DNA of 64,000 nt from Candidatus Micrarchaeota archaeon (lineage in GTDB: Archaea; Micrarchaeota; Micrarchaeia; Anstonellales; Anstonellaceae). The notes under the pieces were generated by a model. It made no database searches. It was given only the letters and a program-made list of their open reading frames with translations, and was not told the DNA's origin. The stretch lies in contig JAPLWX010000050.1 in NCBI GenBank assembly GCA_026396415.1, forward strand, positions 15,783 through 79,782. The letters are read 5' to 3'. The translations under genes and the position numbers were made by a program. Below are positions 26,038-31,001 of the stretch, piece after piece. Each line of letters starts with the position of its first letter. Positions within the stretch are counted from its first letter, which is position 1.

Positions 26038-27369
26038 TCAGGCAATCGCTGCCAGTATGGCTTTTTCAGCAGCAGCAACCGTTTCGTCCAGCTTTTTCTT
26101 GCCCTTAAACTCGCATGTAAGGCGCATGGCGGGCTCGGTGCCGGAAGGGCGCACAAGAAGCCAGCCATCGGAAAAATCATAGCGCAGTCCGTCTATGGTG
26201 GAAAGCTTTGCTTCAGGGAACGCCAGCCCCCCTGCCAGCTCCGCCATTATCCTTTCCTTGCTTTTTCCCCCGCACCCGTACTTGCGCCTCTCTATGGGAT
26301 ATGTTTTCACGCCGTCTGCAAGCGCGGAAAGCCTGCCTTTTGTGCAGAATATCTCAGCAAGGCAAAGCGCGGAGAGGAGCCCGTCCGCGCAAGGCGTGGA
26401 GGACGGGAAAACATACTCCCCGCAAGGCTCGCCGCCAAAAACCGCGCCCTGCTTTTTCACCTGCTCGGCAACAAACAGGCTGCCAACAGGGGTGATAGAA
26501 AGCCTGCCGCCCGCCTTCTCCACAGTCTCCTTAACGCAAAGCGAAGCCTCCACCGTGCTGACAATCGCGCCTTTTTTCTTTTTCAGGAAATGCGCGCAGA
26601 AAATGGCAAGCTGCACATCCAGCGCAAGCACCCTTCCTTTCTCGTCAATGCCGATTGCGCGGTCCCCGTCCCCGTCGAATGCAATCCCAAGGTCGCACCT
26701 GTTCTTCTTCACGGCCTCTGATGCCACGGTAAGTGTTTCTGCTTTTGGCTCCAAATCCCTCCCGGGCTTTCCAGGCTCGCTGCAGTACAGCTCCACCACC
26801 TCGCAGCCGGCAGCCCTCAAAAGCGCAGGGGCTAAAATGGAGGCAGCGGCATTCCCAGCATCAACCAGCACGCGCGGCTTCCTGCCTGCAATGGATGGCG
26901 TGTCCACCTGCGGGAGCAGGAAATGGGCATACTCCTGCGCATAGTCTTTGCTCTCCTTCTGCCCGGCCTCATTCCAGGCAACCGCGCTTTCCTTGCCTGC
27001 AATTGCCGCTTCCACTTCGGCTTCCTGGCTGCGCGTGAATTCCGAGCCGCATGAAAACAGCTTTATGCCATTGTATTCCGGCGGATTGTGCGATGCCGTG
27101 ACCATGGCGCCATTGCACTTCTCGCGCGCGGTGGCATATGCCAGCAAAGGGGTGGGCGCCATGCCGATATCAACAACGCCTGCTCCCGAAAGCATGGCCC
27201 CCGCGGCAATCGCATTTGCAAGAAGCGGGGAAGTGGAGCGCGCATCGCGCGCAATAATGAGTTTTCCCCCTTTCTTCCCAGCCGCGCCTCCTGTGCGCAT
27301 GGCGAGGGAAGCAGTGACCTCCTTGCCGTAAATGCCCCGTATGCCTGATGTCCCGAACAAGCCTGCCAT
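26038..27369 (-). CDS. glmM: phosphohexomutase (phosphoglucosamine mutase / phosphomannomutase family)
   Basis: The N-terminus reads LFGTSGIRGIYG. The active-site serine loop is TASHNPPEYNGIKLF. The C-terminus is GWLLVRPSGTEP. Confidence 0.85.
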   Translation of the reverse strand: MAGLFGTSGIRGIYGKEVTASLAMRTGGAAGKKGGKLIIARDARSTSPLLANAIAAGAMLSGAGVVDIGMAPTPLLAYATAREKCNGAMVTASHNPPEYNGIKLFSCGSEFTRSQEAEVEAAIAGKESAVAWNEAGQKESKDYAQEYAHFLLPQVDTPSIAGRKPRVLVDAGNAAASILAPALLRAAGCEVVELYCSEPGKPGRDLEPKAETLTVASEAVKKNRCDLGIAFDGDGDRAIGIDEKGRVLALDVQLAIFCAHFLKKKKGAIVSTVEASLCVKETVEKAGGRLSITPVGSLFVAEQVKKQGAVFGGEPCGEYVFPSSTPCADGLLSALCLAEIFCTKGRLSALADGVKTYPIERRKYGCGGKSKERIMAELAGGLAFPEAKLSTIDGLRYDFSDGWLLVRPSGTEPAMRLTCEFKGKKKLDETVAAAEKAILAAIA

Positions 27370-27422
27370 GCTTTGGCTTGGGGCAAATAGCCTTTTAAAG
27401 TCTTAATCTCACAGACCTCGAT

Positions 27423-27599
27423 ATGAGCGTGGACAGGCTATCCGTGGCAGGCCCGCAGTCCGCTGCGGGGATAATGGGGATTTCCTCCAACACCAACCTT
27501 GGCGGCATCAAGTTCAACCCGCGCGGGGTGGTGCTCTTCTCGGCAGTCTTCATAGTGGTCGTGAAAATCATCGACACGCTGCTGAGAGGCAGCGCCTGA
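27423..27599 (+). CDS. secG: preprotein translocase subunit Sec61-beta (SecG), 58 aa; below the ORF-track length cutoff
   Basis: The manual translation is MSVDRLSVAGPQSAAGIMGISSNTNLGGIKFNPRGVVLFSAVFIVVVKIIDTLLRGSA. This has the G-rich N-terminus and the single C-terminal TM helix typical of archaeal Sec-beta. The overlapping minus-strand track ORF (27395-27613) is judged spurious. Confidence 0.55.
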   Translation: MSVDRLSVAGPQSAAGIMGISSNTNLGGIKFNPRGVVLFSAVFIVVVKIIDTLLRGSA

Positions 27600-27639
27600 G
27601 CCAGGCTAAGCAAACCATTTTCCTTAGCGGAAGCCCTCT

Positions 27640-28209
27640 CTATGCAGATTTAGGAGCTGGCGGTTGGCTTGGAATGGCTTTTTCCACTTGCCGGTTCCAC
27701 TGGTAGATGTCGAGGCGCATGCTTACATTTGCCCCGCTGCCGTCGCTCAGGTTCCTTACAAATCCCAAGCCGGTGTAGAACTTAAGCTGGGCCGGGTAAG
27801 CATCCACTGTTACGAACCTGCAGCCGACTTCCTCAGATATGGCTATCGCCTTTCCGATGATGTATTTCACTAGAAATGCCCCCACTCCGCGATTTTGGTG
27901 TGGCGTTGCTGTTGCCAACCGGGCCACCTTGATTCCAGGGTAATCCGCGTGGGGCTTTTCTTTTCCGAACTCATCCTTCCGTTCTTTCATGCCCAGCCGG
28001 ATTGCATCCGTGCACACGCTTATGAACGCAATCGGCTCATTTTTATAAAGAGCAATGAATGTCTGGGCCAGCTTCTTTTCTGCGTATACAAATGCGTCAT
28101 TTCTGATAAAATCGTTCAGGTCCGGATCGTTGCAATCAAATTTCTCAACTGATATGCCTGGCTTGAGGCGAACAATCGTAAGTTCTTCCACTGGGAATGG
28201 CTCTGGCAT
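27640..28209 (-). CDS. GNAT-family acetyltransferase of the TacT/AtaT-like toxin type
   Basis: Has the KFDCNDPDLNDFIRNDA motif (the FDCG-xxxLNxFL signature of GNAT toxins). The acetyl-CoA loop is QNRGVGAFLVKYIIGKAIAISEEVGCRFVTVDAY. GC is lower than the flanking genes. Confidence 0.55.
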   Translation of the reverse strand: MPEPFPVEELTIVRLKPGISVEKFDCNDPDLNDFIRNDAFVYAEKKLAQTFIALYKNEPIAFISVCTDAIRLGMKERKDEFGKEKPHADYPGIKVARLATATPHQNRGVGAFLVKYIIGKAIAISEEVGCRFVTVDAYPAQLKFYTGLGFVRNLSDGSGANVSMRLDIYQWNRQVEKAIPSQPPAPKSA

Positions 28210-28221
28210 AAAAGTCGGCGC

Positions 28222-28374
28222 TCATACCTTGAATTTTTGGTATATGTCGAAGCATTCGTGCAGGAATTTTGCCTTCTTCGGATTAACCGCAGACTCTTCA
28301 ATCCGTGTCTGCTCAAGGAAATTCTCCGCATTCTTCCCTTCAAGAACCGGCGTCGGTTCAATTGGTTTTGCCAT
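28222..28374 (-). CDS. 51-aa ORF immediately upstream of the GNAT gene (12-nt gap); candidate cognate antitoxin
   Basis: The manual translation is MAKPIEPTPVLEGKNAENFLEQTRIEESAVNPKKAKFLHECFDIYQKFKV. It is not in the ORF track because it is under 60 aa. Position and size fit the antitoxin slot of GNAT-toxin modules. Confidence 0.3.
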   Translation of the reverse strand: MAKPIEPTPVLEGKNAENFLEQTRIEESAVNPKKAKFLHECFDIYQKFKV

Positions 28375-28696
28375 TTGTTCCACCACTGCTGTCTCAGCTA
28401 CTGTTCCTACTGACCTTATTGTTGCGAGAATATATAGATTTACTGACCCACCGAAGATAGTTTAGTGCCAAATTCACTGTCTTTGGTTTACCATCATGGT
28501 AGTTTGTTTATAAATAAAATCAGATACGGCTGCCAATCCGCGCGCAATTTCTGGAAAAGGATAGGTCGAAAACAGAACGTAGCTGTAGGCGAATATCGCG
28601 CTGCTAAAATAGAGGCTTCGGAAGGTTAGCCTTTATTGGTTGTTCATATTTTGGGAATAAAACATAGGTTTATAATACTGTATAACATAATGTTAC

Positions 28697-28894
28697 ATGG
28701 GAATGTATATGGTCAAGATATTGATTGATTTGTCAGACGAAGAGGACAAGATTGCCGAAGTCTACAAGGTTGTCAATGGTCTGAAAACGAAACAGGAAGC
28801 CGTGAAGCGGATGGTGAGGCACTTTAAGGTCAGCATAACTCCAACTAATCTTGACAAGCACGATGAATACTACAAGAAAACTGTGAAATTCTGA
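28697..28894 (+). CDS. small protein (65 aa), possibly RHH/CopG-like
   Basis: The sequence VKILIDLSDEEDKIAEVYKVVNGLKTKQEAVKRMV resembles RHH-type small regulators. It is AT-rich, and its stop abuts the LemA start. Confidence 0.3.
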   Translation: MGMYMVKILIDLSDEEDKIAEVYKVVNGLKTKQEAVKRMVRHFKVSITPTNLDKHDEYYKKTVKF

Positions 28895-28895
28895 G

Positions 28896-29447
28896 GTGAT
28901 GTGCGTGGACTATATGATATACGTTGTTAGCGGAGTAGTCGTGATTGGAGGCATATATTGTATCATTACATACAATCGACTTGTCAATCTTAGGATAAAC
29001 GTAGACCGACAGGCAAGTCATGTTGAGGTTCATCTCAAGAAGAAATTCGACTTGATACCCGCCATTGTTGAGTGTGTCAAGGGCTACGCCAAGCACGAGA
29101 AGGGAACTCTGGAGGAGGTCACGCACTTGAGGTCGCAGTGGGCGGAGAGCAAGACCAAAGATGAGAAGATTAAGAATGCCAACATGCTCGAAGCAGCGCT
29201 GTCCAAGTTACTCATTGTTCAGGAGAATTATCCGCAACTGAAAGCCGACAGGAGTTTCATCAGGCTTCAGAATGAAATCACCCATGTGGAGAATGAACTG
29301 GCACATGAGAGGAAGGTTTTCAACAAGAGGGTGAGTTGGTATAATGTGAAGCTCCAAGAGTTTCCTTCGGTGTTGGTTGCCAAGGCACTTGGATTTCAGG
29401 AGAGGGAGTTCTTCACGTTCGGGAAGGGCAGTATGGATATCGAGTAG
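28896..29447 (+). CDS. lemA: LemA family protein
   Basis: An N-terminal TM is followed by YNRLVNLRINVDRQASHVEVHLKKKFDLIPAIVECVKGYAKHEKGTLEEVTHLR, which closely matches the LemA family. Confidence 0.75.
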   Translation: MMCVDYMIYVVSGVVVIGGIYCIITYNRLVNLRINVDRQASHVEVHLKKKFDLIPAIVECVKGYAKHEKGTLEEVTHLRSQWAESKTKDEKIKNANMLEAALSKLLIVQENYPQLKADRSFIRLQNEITHVENELAHERKVFNKRVSWYNVKLQEFPSVLVAKALGFQEREFFTFGKGSMDIE

Positions 29448-29465
29448 TGGTTCAAGAAAAATGAT

Positions 29466-29822
29466 TTGGTGATATATGTGGGGTTCCTCGATTGGATTCA
29501 CAAAACGTTTTTCAGTGATAAACGAGCAAGAACATTCCATTGTTATGTGAAAATAATTCATCGTAGAAATTATGTCTATATTTTCAAAGATAATTCAGGT
29601 GATGATAACGACCATTGGATAAACAAGATGACAGTCAAACATGGGAAAGTAAAGACGAGAGTTCTGAAAAGATGGAAAAACGCTCGTTCAAATTACGACA
29701 CCAAGTATCTGGTCTCGCCTATTACAAGAACTGCCACCATAAGTATATCTGATTATGACTACTATCTCGGTGGGCGCACAATAGACAGAGAAAAATTGAG
29801 AGTAGTTCTACATAGGACGTGA
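29466..29822 (+). CDS. hypothetical protein (118 aa), AT-rich
   Basis: An ORF in a very AT-rich stretch. No motif recognised. Weak call. Confidence 0.2.
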   Translation: MVIYVGFLDWIHKTFFSDKRARTFHCYVKIIHRRNYVYIFKDNSGDDNDHWINKMTVKHGKVKTRVLKRWKNARSNYDTKYLVSPITRTATISISDYDYYLGGRTIDREKLRVVLHRT

Positions 29823-29891
29823 AACGATCACGCGGAAATTCACAATTGAAGACGTGCGCGTTAGCTCTCCAAGAAAAGCAAAATCTCTTTC

Positions 29892-31001
29892 CTATCCAAA
29901 CAGCCTTTTCGCCGCGCGCGCAACCTTCTTGACATGCCTCTCATCGCACATGACAAGCGCCTCCAGCCTGCGCGACTGCATGGAGACGAGCGCGGAGACA
30001 AGCTCGCTCTCGCGCGCGAGGGGAAGTATCTTTCCGTCCTTTTTCTCAAGGAGTATGTGCGCTTTGGCTGACAGGTTGGGGATGTCCACAAGCACAGGGC
30101 AGCCGCACGCGTCCGTAAGCTCCTCCTCTGCCTTGCGCGCGGGCATCCTCATCTTTGACATGGGCACGGAATAGGCTTTCTTGAAAAGATGGCGCTTCTT
30201 TATCCTTGCCGCATATTCATGCGCGCGGGGCGAGGCGCCAAGCGCGTCCAATGCCTGCGAATCGCCAAAGGAAAGGAAGTCCTCCTCGCAAAGAGTGCCG
30301 TCCTCAAGGGCAAGCATAATCGCCTGCTGCAGCATGCGCGAGGCAATCCTCACAGTCTTGTGGAGATAGACCGTGGAGAACATGGTGATGCGCGCGACCA
30401 GCAGGCTTTCCGCGGCCTCAAGCCCGCGCTCGCGTATGAGCAGGCCCTTCCTGCCAAGCGACACGCTGGTGCAAATCCTCTGCGTGTCTATCACGCCATA
30501 GGCAACCCCCGTATAGTGCGAATCGCGCAGCAGGTAGTCCATCCTGTCCGCGCCAATGTCGGATGTTATCACGCTGCCAATGGTGGTGTCGCAGACATCT
30601 GCGATTTCGCGCGGGGAGAACTCGGATGACAGCGCATCCGCCACTTCCCCGTGGAGCGCCAGGCGCTTTCCCACCTCCTCGTGCGTGCCAAGCCTTGCCT
30701 TGAGCACTGCCTCGGACTCATGCGAGAATGCGACATGCCCTATGTCGTGAAGAAGCGCAGCCGCCCTCACCTTCGATATCCTCTCCTCCGTCATGCCCAT
30801 CTCGCGGCACATCCTGTCCGCAAGGAAAAGCGTGCCGATGGAGTGCTCGAAGCGCGTGTGGTTTGCGCCTGGATACACAAGATAGCCCGTGGCAAGCTGG
30901 CGTATGCCCCGAAGCCTCTGCATCTGGCAGCAGTCAAGCAGCCTCTCCTCGGTGCCTGTCAGCGCAATGGTTCCGTGCAGCGGGTCCCGAATCCTGAACA
31001 T
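29892..31001 (-). CDS. HD-domain phosphohydrolase (dNTP triphosphohydrolase-like)
   Basis: The N-terminus IRDPLHGTIALTGTEERLLDCCQMQRLRGIRQLA and the HD motif RFEHSIGTLFLA...LLHDIGHVAFSHESE are consistent with the dGTPase/SAMHD1-like subfamily. Confidence 0.7.
   Translation of the reverse strand: MFRIRDPLHGTIALTGTEERLLDCCQMQRLRGIRQLATGYLVYPGANHTRFEHSIGTLFLADRMCREMGMTEERISKVRAAALLHDIGHVAFSHESEAVLKARLGTHEEVGKRLALHGEVADALSSEFSPREIADVCDTTIGSVITSDIGADRMDYLLRDSHYTGVAYGVIDTQRICTSVSLGRKGLLIRERGLEAAESLLVARITMFSTVYLHKTVRIASRMLQQAIMLALEDGTLCEEDFLSFGDSQALDALGASPRAHEYAARIKKRHLFKKAYSVPMSKMRMPARKAEEELTDACGCPVLVDIPNLSAKAHILLEKKDGKILPLARESELVSALVSMQSRRLEALVMCDERHVKKVARAAKRLFG

Follow-up and report, generated by a model that had tools for sequence, protein, structure and literature searches.

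What is encoded by a GNAT-family acetyltransferase gene that follows a gene of only 50 codons: a toxin with an unusually small antitoxin, or an enzyme and a partner of some other kind? This question is raised by positions 27640-28374 of a 64,000-nucleotide stretch of contig JAPLWX010000050.1 from a Candidatus Micrarchaeota archaeon (assembly GCA_026396415.1), the whole of which we refer to as the window. A first-pass annotation made from these letters had read the GNAT as a toxin-type enzyme and the small open reading frame (ORF) upstream of it as a candidate short antitoxin. Our analyses lead us to a similar view, namely that the two genes form a toxin-antitoxin-like (TA-like) module with a minimal antitoxin that has no DNA-binding domain, a reading that we consider probable though far from secure. 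GNAT toxin modules are already known, and what is new here is most likely a previously undefined, domain-minimal antitoxin family.

The GNAT gene, an ORF of 189 amino acids (aa) read from the sequence, occupies positions 27640-28209 on the minus strand and carries the motif that had drawn attention to it (KFDCNDPDLNDFIR, residues 23-36). Upstream on the same strand, at 28222-28374, lies the small-partner gene, whose product is MAKPIEPTPVLEGKNAENFLEQTRIEESAVNPKKAKFLHECFDIYQKFKV. It starts at the ATG at 28374 and ends with the stop codon at 28224-28222, and a spacer of 12 nt (28210-28221, minus strand) then leads to the ATG of the GNAT at 28209, all as first described except for the length of the small product: the ORF comprises 50 codons and a stop, giving 50 and not 51 aa. 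Because the two ORFs share one frame across this 12-nt spacer, the arrangement suggests a bicistronic operon; in related loci the distance between the two genes ranges from -35 to +26 nt. An alternative GTG start at 28386 would yield a product of 54 aa, and we take the ATG at 28374 as the real start because all homologues begin MA[RK]PI. The small ORF had been called un-annotated, and this is only partly correct, since the gene is annotated but has no name: the same 50-aa product is deposited at NCBI as hypothetical protein NTX79_08450 of a Candidatus Micrarchaeota metagenome-assembled genome (MAG) and gene callers also predicted the gene on 14 further contigs. At 50 aa it falls under the default ORF-listing threshold of 60 aa. 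The gene is nucleotide-identical across contigs of the same population, so nucleotide comparison is uninformative on selection.

When the 50-aa protein was searched as a single sequence, three close relatives only were recovered. Among 80 fetched loci of GNAT relatives, nearly all were found to have an ORF of 45-64 aa directly upstream, with products that start MA[RK]PI[EK]xTP[IV]LxGxDAxxF. With a profile of 54 small proteins the family grew to 2,247 clusters at 90% identity; at 50% identity it counts 1,960 clusters (E ≤ 1e-3), as obtained when 1.84 billion representatives were scanned exhaustively with HMMER. Wherever a source supplied a name for a family member it was "hypothetical protein", and precomputed Pfam domains were absent throughout. 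Further, neither the small protein of the window nor any of the 54 members matched a Pfam or NCBIfam model at E ≤ 1, including those for DUF1778 and ribbon-helix-helix (RHH) proteins, the PADLOC models did not match the window protein either, and when PDB sequences were searched with the family profile only chance matches came up (E ≥ 0.3), with no antitoxin among them. The earlier suggestion of a new minimal partner family is upheld by these searches. The ORF length is held at 50 codons in homologues that are just 56-60% identical, and residue conservation peaks in the first 19 positions, where M1, A2, P4, I5, L11 and G13 are invariant and R/K3, T8, P9, D15, A16 and F19 nearly so; the predicted helices are variable. 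We also considered an N-terminal DNA-binding domain in the longer database entries (85-131 aa) and rejected it, the extensions being junk from mis-called starts. The conservation of sequence, length and position in archaea, bacteria and viruses alike is far beyond chance and marks the small ORF as a genuine gene, and by sequence comparison its products make up one coherent family without a match to known families.

The association of the two genes was assessed in 172 loci (the window, 80 genome loci, 11 IMG/VR viral loci and 80 metagenome loci), which were scanned for both proteins with hidden Markov models (HMMs). The small gene adjoins the GNAT in 167 of the 168 loci with usable flanking DNA, so that the conservation beside GNAT homologues on which the first-pass proposal hinged is evident; the sole locus without a small gene ends just past the GNAT. 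In 160 of these 168 loci the small gene lies directly upstream on the same strand. Seven others (L018, L022, L032, L114, L123, L128 and L141) have it immediately downstream on the opposite strand, in convergent orientation, so that adjacency persists without operon coupling. We did not identify a third conserved gene, for instance a separate repressor, within 3-4 kb on either side of 92 loci, the next ORF family being present in at most 5 of the 92.

The 80 genome loci come from 32 archaeal and 48 bacterial records. Archaeal carriers belong to the Micrarchaeota, Woesearchaeota, Altiarchaeales, Methanosarcinales, Methanomicrobiales, Methanobacterium and Methanoperedens, and bacterial carriers are mostly Bacteroidota, with some Acidobacteriota, Planctomycetia, Omnitrophota, Coriobacteriia, Kiritimatiellae and Leptospira. 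All 11 of the IMG/VR viral contigs have the pair, and a tblastn search with a Bacteroidales consensus gave one phage match, the cultured Bacteroides phage BS-TP1 (PQ571274.1, locus L180, 2207-3236), in which the pair sits between structural genes and the integrase. In a Micrarchaeota relative whose GNAT is 90% identical to that of the window, the pair is found at the same site, between an HD-domain gene and sec61-beta/PGM, with other cargo alongside. Duplicated pairs and decayed fusions of the small protein with the GNAT also exist. The pair is thus near-obligately linked across archaea, bacteria and phages, and the combination of fixed pairing, variable context, viral carriage, low GC content and duplicated or decayed copies is typical of TA-like selfish or defence modules.

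Several of these loci have peculiarities of their own. The phage BS-TP1 gene gp121 is annotated as a 167-aa hypothetical protein and has the small-family protein (~50 aa) at its C-terminal end because of a mis-called start; it is followed by the acetyltransferase gp120 and then by the integrase gp119. The same start-codon error is common in metagenomic entries. Two small-family genes are present at each of the loci L055 (2831-2977 and 3535-3681) and L060 (2141-2299 and 2865-3023), and the entry P0195 contains a tandem internal duplication of the small-protein domain; such paralogous genes with a near-invariant N-terminal motif raise the question of how cross-talk is avoided. The entries P0192 and P0213 are in-frame fusions of the whole small protein with the last ~45 GNAT residues (…CRFLTVDAY…FYxKNGF…), and they appear from their sequences to be deletion remnants of decayed loci that retained the putative antitoxin. 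Finally, a pair in an "uncultured Staphylococcus sp." MAG record (L033) is almost identical to Muribaculaceae pairs; a binning error or contamination is the probable explanation, not an occurrence in Firmicutes.

More relevant to function, the GNAT itself resembles one class of enzymes specifically. Pfam assigns only generic domains to it (Acetyltransf_7, _1 and _10). In a phmmer search against all PDB sequences the 16 best matches (E = 7e-7 to 8e-3) were AtaT, TacT1, TacT2, TacT3, KacT, AtaT2 and GmvT together with 7byy, a chain that the Foldseek listing titles "bacterial toxin"; AtaT, TacT3, KacT, the 7byy chain and AtaT2 led them at E = 7e-7 to 3e-3. In the same search histone and Naa-type GNATs appeared only at E ≥ 0.1. 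The AlphaFold2 model of the GNAT, computed from an alignment of 20 homologues, has a mean predicted local distance difference test (pLDDT) score of 91.7. A Foldseek search of the PDB with this model placed tRNA-acetylating toxin chains in all of the first 38 positions, with template-modelling (TM) scores, normalised to the target, of 0.77-0.87; the first non-toxin GNATs followed after a clear gap, at ~0.5. The catalytic tyrosine of these toxins (AtaT Y144, KacT Y145) is conserved as tyrosine 145, which aligns with AtaT Y144 in the phmmer alignment and is invariant among the 20 homologues, and the acetyl-CoA motif, of the type Q/RxxGxG/A, reads Q105-N-R-G-V-G-A111. Near the N-terminus the protein carries the motif FDCNDPDLNDF (residues 24-34), the pattern FDCxDxxLNxF of which is conserved; residues 24-35 (FDCNDPDLNDFI) align with FDCGEEALNLFL of AtaT, and F24, L31 and F34 are invariant. 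Together, sequence and modelled fold identify the protein as a homologue of the tRNA-acetylating toxins and of toxin type, as had been proposed. It neither grouped with the Rim-type housekeeping enzymes nor lacked the toxin residues, two findings that would have spoken for an ordinary acetyltransferase.

The relationship of this GNAT to the classical toxins was examined in a neighbour-joining tree, in which 65 GNATs with a small partner split from seven plasmid GNATs in 36 of 40 bootstraps, the tree being unrooted and the sample of DUF1778-partnered GNATs small. The seven comprise five with an annotated DUF1778 partner, the Pigmentibacter GNAT with a DUF1778-like partner and the Thiodictyon GNAT with an unannotated 71-aa partner. 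The only relatives of the window GNAT on plasmids, at 26-32% identity, are GNATs that have a gene annotated as DUF1778 upstream. By every testable feature of its sequence and model the window GNAT therefore looks TacT/AtaT-like, yet in this tree it lies outside the DUF1778-associated clade.

How might a 50-aa protein act on such an enzyme? Its AlphaFold2 model (97 homologues, pLDDT = 90.5) has an extended segment at residues 1-13, a helix at 14-28, a loop and a second helix at 32-47. In the DUF1778 antitoxin KacA, the C-terminal hook consists of betaB (52-56), alphaC (57-70), a PPAP linker and alphaD (75-86); betaB pairs with strand beta3 of KacT at C69 and E71, the hydrophobic residues of alphaC rest on KacT, and R77 of alphaD clashes with acetyl-CoA (PMC6698736). 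The order of strand, helix and helix in the modelled small protein matches the betaB-alphaC-linker-alphaD order of this hook. In the PDB entries 7ak8, 7ak9, 6gtq and 9ils, toxins were co-crystallised with C-terminal antitoxin peptides alone, which indicates that the DUF1778 hook is able to bind the toxin by itself.

In support of this likeness, hhalign placed residues 7-28 of the small protein on residues 61-82 of full-length DUF1778 (P = 0.0025), and an alignment of 138 family members with the C-domain of 10 DUF1778 proteins covered 39 columns (probability = 55%, P = 1.2e-4). Against the RHH domain of DUF1778 the probability was 1.9% (P = 0.026). Of the controls for the C-domain alignment, a reversed one scored 10.2 versus the observed 21.7, and the observed score was reached by 1 of 200 column shuffles. 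The register was also consistent across the several DUF1778 C-domains to which the small-family HMM aligned, with the highest score, 10.7 bits, for ETLVLSDRDRAVFFDVLVNPPAPS of Methylovirgula. We further computed mutual information with average product correction for 129 non-redundant pairs of small protein and GNAT (8,575 column pairs), and the top pair was small-protein position 7 with GNAT residue 69 (z = 7.0). By the hhalign register position 7 corresponds to KacA R52, and by the AtaT alignment residue 69 corresponds to KacT C69, two residues in backbone contact in the crystal structure. The two positions have complementary charges, with E, D or N at position 7 accompanied by K or R at 69 in 57 of 58 cases, and P at position 7 by A or S at 69 in 33 of 37. 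Other high-scoring GNAT positions (71, 153-154 and 162-165) fall in or near the equivalents of KacT contacts. The covariation at 7/69 is supportive, not decisive, as its states track the major clades and phylogeny inflates the signal. Taken together, three weak but independent lines are suggestive of a remote homology between the small family and the C-terminal neutralising domain of DUF1778.

Two plasmid partners touch on the same relationship. The C-domain of the Pigmentibacter protein, EIPQTILSYRDSIKFIELLERDDEPN, looks intermediate between DUF1778 and the small family. On the proteobacterial plasmid pTs417 of Candidatus Thiodictyon (L084, 583-798), the GNAT groups with the DUF1778-partnered toxins and its upstream partner is a 71-aa "hypothetical protein" that by eye resembles a DUF1778 C-domain, seems too short for a full RHH domain and is matched weakly by the small-family HMM. 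Its sequence may suggest that DUF1778 was truncated independently more than once.

Based on these comparisons we hypothesize the following mechanism. [quoted passage not shown] The near-invariant N-terminal PIxxTPxL segment would pair as an additional beta-strand with the edge strand of the GNAT near residues 66-72, while the two helices, joined by a short and usually proline-containing linker, would wrap around the enzyme and prevent it from binding acetyl-CoA or its substrate, or from dimerising. This mode of inhibition would parallel that of the C-terminal betaB-alphaC-alphaD hook of KacA, AtaR and TacA, and we infer it from the weak profile similarity, the matching secondary structure and the covariation. 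Repression of its own promoter by the small protein is improbable because it has no RHH domain; nor is a repressor supplied by a conserved third gene. The conservation of residues 1-5 exceeds what strand addition would need, and this leaves room for other roles, with a pseudosubstrate or active-site plug, or a substrate or regulatory subunit of a non-toxic enzyme, all conceivable.

Several observations weigh against a TA module of this kind. The window GNAT falls outside the DUF1778-associated "true TA clade" of Bikmetov et al. 2022 (PMC9177977; neighbour-joining, 36/40 bootstraps), and these authors noted that GNATs outside that clade may serve other physiological functions. With the DNA-binding domain absent, it is hard to see how the pair would be autoregulated in the manner usual for type II systems, and any such control would be unconventional. 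The near-invariant N-terminus of the small protein is unusual for antitoxins, which normally diverge and thereby insulate paralogues. The tblastn search with the Bacteroidales consensus found no small-family member among the PLSDB plasmids. The similarity to the DUF1778 C-domain is itself weak, with hhalign probabilities of 12-55% and no HMM score above 10.7 bits, and the clade effect on the covariation has been mentioned above. The separate grouping, the absent DNA-binding domain and the lack of plasmid copies also speak for a pair that is not a TA system at all, in which the GNAT is non-toxic and the small protein serves as its substrate, as a subunit for specificity or activation, or as a physiological regulator; the invariant Met-Ala-Arg/Lys N-terminus, for example, could be the site that is acetylated. 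An N-terminus that is invariant across phyla is easier to reconcile with a conserved substrate or a ligand of the active site than with an antitoxin that evolves fast, two related Micrarchaeota have the pair at one and the same locus, and the convergent arrangement at seven loci is not coupled as an operon. Against such a physiological role, the GNAT shares its fold, its catalytic motif and its N-terminal motif specifically with tRNA-acetylating toxins, the distribution is patchy across domains, and the contexts vary without any conserved metabolic or regulatory neighbour. Carriage on phages and viral contigs, in one cultured phage beside the integrase, and the duplicated and decayed copies in low-GC surroundings are likewise typical of selfish or defence modules. 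We therefore regard a non-TA function as a serious alternative but an unlikely one.

The small protein might instead be a miniature RHH repressor of the Arc/CopG kind, a strand dimer that reads an operator and for which neutralisation of the GNAT is optional. A length of ~50 aa and the predicted order of strand, helix and helix do match the RHH topology, and classical GNAT antitoxins are RHH proteins (PMC6698736). However, none of the 54 members matched RHH families at the threshold given above, and hhalign favours the DUF1778 C-domain over the RHH domain (P = 1.2e-4 and 0.026, respectively). Further, two prolines of the putative strand are near-invariant and its sequence hardly changes between archaea and Bacteroidota, in contrast to the operator-reading strands of RHH proteins, which vary with their operators; no palindromic operator was found upstream of the pair. 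These data make a repressor of this type improbable. A variant that keeps inhibition as the function would make the family a free-standing descendant of the DUF1778 hook with an added active-site plug: once the initiator methionine is removed, the alpha-amine of the Ala-Arg/Lys-Pro-Ile terminus could enter the aminoacyl pocket as a pseudosubstrate or suicide substrate and possibly be acetylated, so that inhibition would be tuned by the level of acetyl-CoA or by N-acetylation of the antitoxin and not by transcriptional autoregulation. Such a plug would explain both the cross-phylum invariance of residues 1-5 and the absent DNA-binding domain, and even so we would give it little credence in this specific form. 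As for a chance ORF, or a mere leader or translational-coupling element without a functional product, the very short length below the ORF-listing threshold is all that speaks for it. It is effectively refuted by a protein conserved across domains of life in ~2,000 clusters at 50% identity, by the 50-codon length kept in homologues of 56-60% identity, by retention of the gene even when it is moved to the opposite strand downstream of the GNAT, and by a confident AlphaFold2 fold. Rather, a TA-like module with a minimal inhibitor remains the reading that we prefer.

The surroundings of the pair add some context. GC content drops from ~0.58 to 0.38-0.48 over roughly 27.8-29.8 kb of the window, and a homologue of Sec61-beta, the archaeal SecG, lies at 27423-27599 on the plus strand (Sec61_beta E = 2e-5, just under the Pfam cut-off); the first-pass annotation had rightly placed the pair at the edge of an AT-rich islet next to secG. 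On the minus strand, a purine-rich GTGGTGG (28380-28386) that ends 5 nt before the ATG of the small gene looks by eye like a Shine-Dalgarno sequence. Also by eye, CTATATATT (28429-28437, minus strand), ~55-63 nt upstream of that ATG, resembles a TATA box and is a possible archaeal promoter of the small gene and the GNAT. A scan for bacterial sigma-70 promoters around the pair gave nothing relevant above background, and scans for terminators and repeats there stayed at background level, with no operator-like palindrome upstream. We found no tRNA genes in the window and no Rfam matches in 26500-30500.

Divergent from the pair is an AT-rich trio of plus-strand genes (28697-29822). It begins with a 65-aa ORF that has a weak VapB/RHH-like match (Pfam E = 0.023), which is abutted by a LemA-family gene at 28896-29447 (PF04011, E = 1e-47), and it ends with an orphan ORF of 118 aa at 29466-29822. 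In the relative with the 90% identical GNAT, unrelated genes of 316 and 123 aa fill the slot of this trio between the HD-domain gene and the pair. The cargo at this site is variable.

If the small protein is indeed an antitoxin, it would represent a new antitoxin family of ~2,000 clusters at 50% identity that is unnamed in databases and whose start codon is often mis-called. A whole group would then be added to the tRNA-acetylating GNAT toxin systems, in DPANN and methanogenic archaea and in human-gut Bacteroidales and their phages, where such systems are unstudied. The family would provide a natural minimal antitoxin that neutralises without DNA binding, useful for understanding how type II modules are regulated without autorepression, and a peptide scaffold of ~50 residues for the inhibition of GNAT toxins. 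It would also settle a point from Bikmetov et al. 2022 (PMC9177977), that of whether GNATs outside the "true TA clade" have antitoxins. Should the active-site plug prove right, this would be the first GNAT TA system shown to operate in archaea, including DPANN, and in phages of gut Bacteroidales.

Among known systems, the closest are the type II pairs of DUF1778 and GNAT, namely TacA-TacT, AtaR-AtaT, KacA-KacT, ItaR-ItaT and GmvA-GmvT. As in these systems there are two genes, the small one first and the GNAT second; the GNAT fold, the catalytic tyrosine, the acetyl-CoA motif and the FDCGxxxLNxFL motif are common to both, and the predicted strand-helix-linker-helix of the small partner matches the C-terminal neutralisation hook of DUF1778. 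Unlike DUF1778 antitoxins, the partner described here is ~50 aa long, has no RHH domain, fails the DUF1778 Pfam model and keeps a near-invariant N-terminus across phyla. The hosts are also different, being mainly archaea and Bacteroidota as opposed to Proteobacteria, with no members on PLSDB plasmids and with GNATs that form a separate group. A precedent for a TacT-like GNAT toxin whose DUF1778 partner is replaced by an unrelated one is VcaA-VcaT, with its Panacea/SocA-like DUF4065 partner (PMC9177977). However, DUF4065 is much larger and unrelated, and GNATs of the VcaT type fall inside the "true TA clade", whereas the 50-aa partner here is possibly related to the DUF1778 C-domain. Antitoxins without a DNA-binding domain, small, helical and devoted to neutralisation only, also include epsilon of omega-epsilon-zeta and PaaA2 of paaR2-paaA2-parE2. 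Those systems have a separate repressor, omega or PaaR2, and in this they differ from the small-partner and GNAT pair, which has no conserved third gene.

Our full-text literature search did not find any paper characterising the small family. Makarova et al. 2009 (PMC2701414) list only GNAT-RHH and GNAT-Xre pairs, and the "cfiA element" proposal for Bacteroides fragilis (PMC9138018) is set apart by the partner genes that it describes, XAT and a lysine-rich peptide. The nearest earlier mention comes from Bikmetov et al. 2022 (PMC9177977), who described DUF1778 and DUF4065 as GNAT partners and in their Discussion pointed to "short divergent ORFs" upstream of GNATs outside the clade. Those loci are probably the same as ours or an overlapping set, as they too are bicistronic and begin with a short ORF for which no DNA-binding domain can be predicted. 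In that account the ORFs are divergent and uncharacterised, whereas the small ORFs described here belong to one strongly conserved family for which the motif is defined, the fold predicted and the linkage to the GNAT near-obligate.

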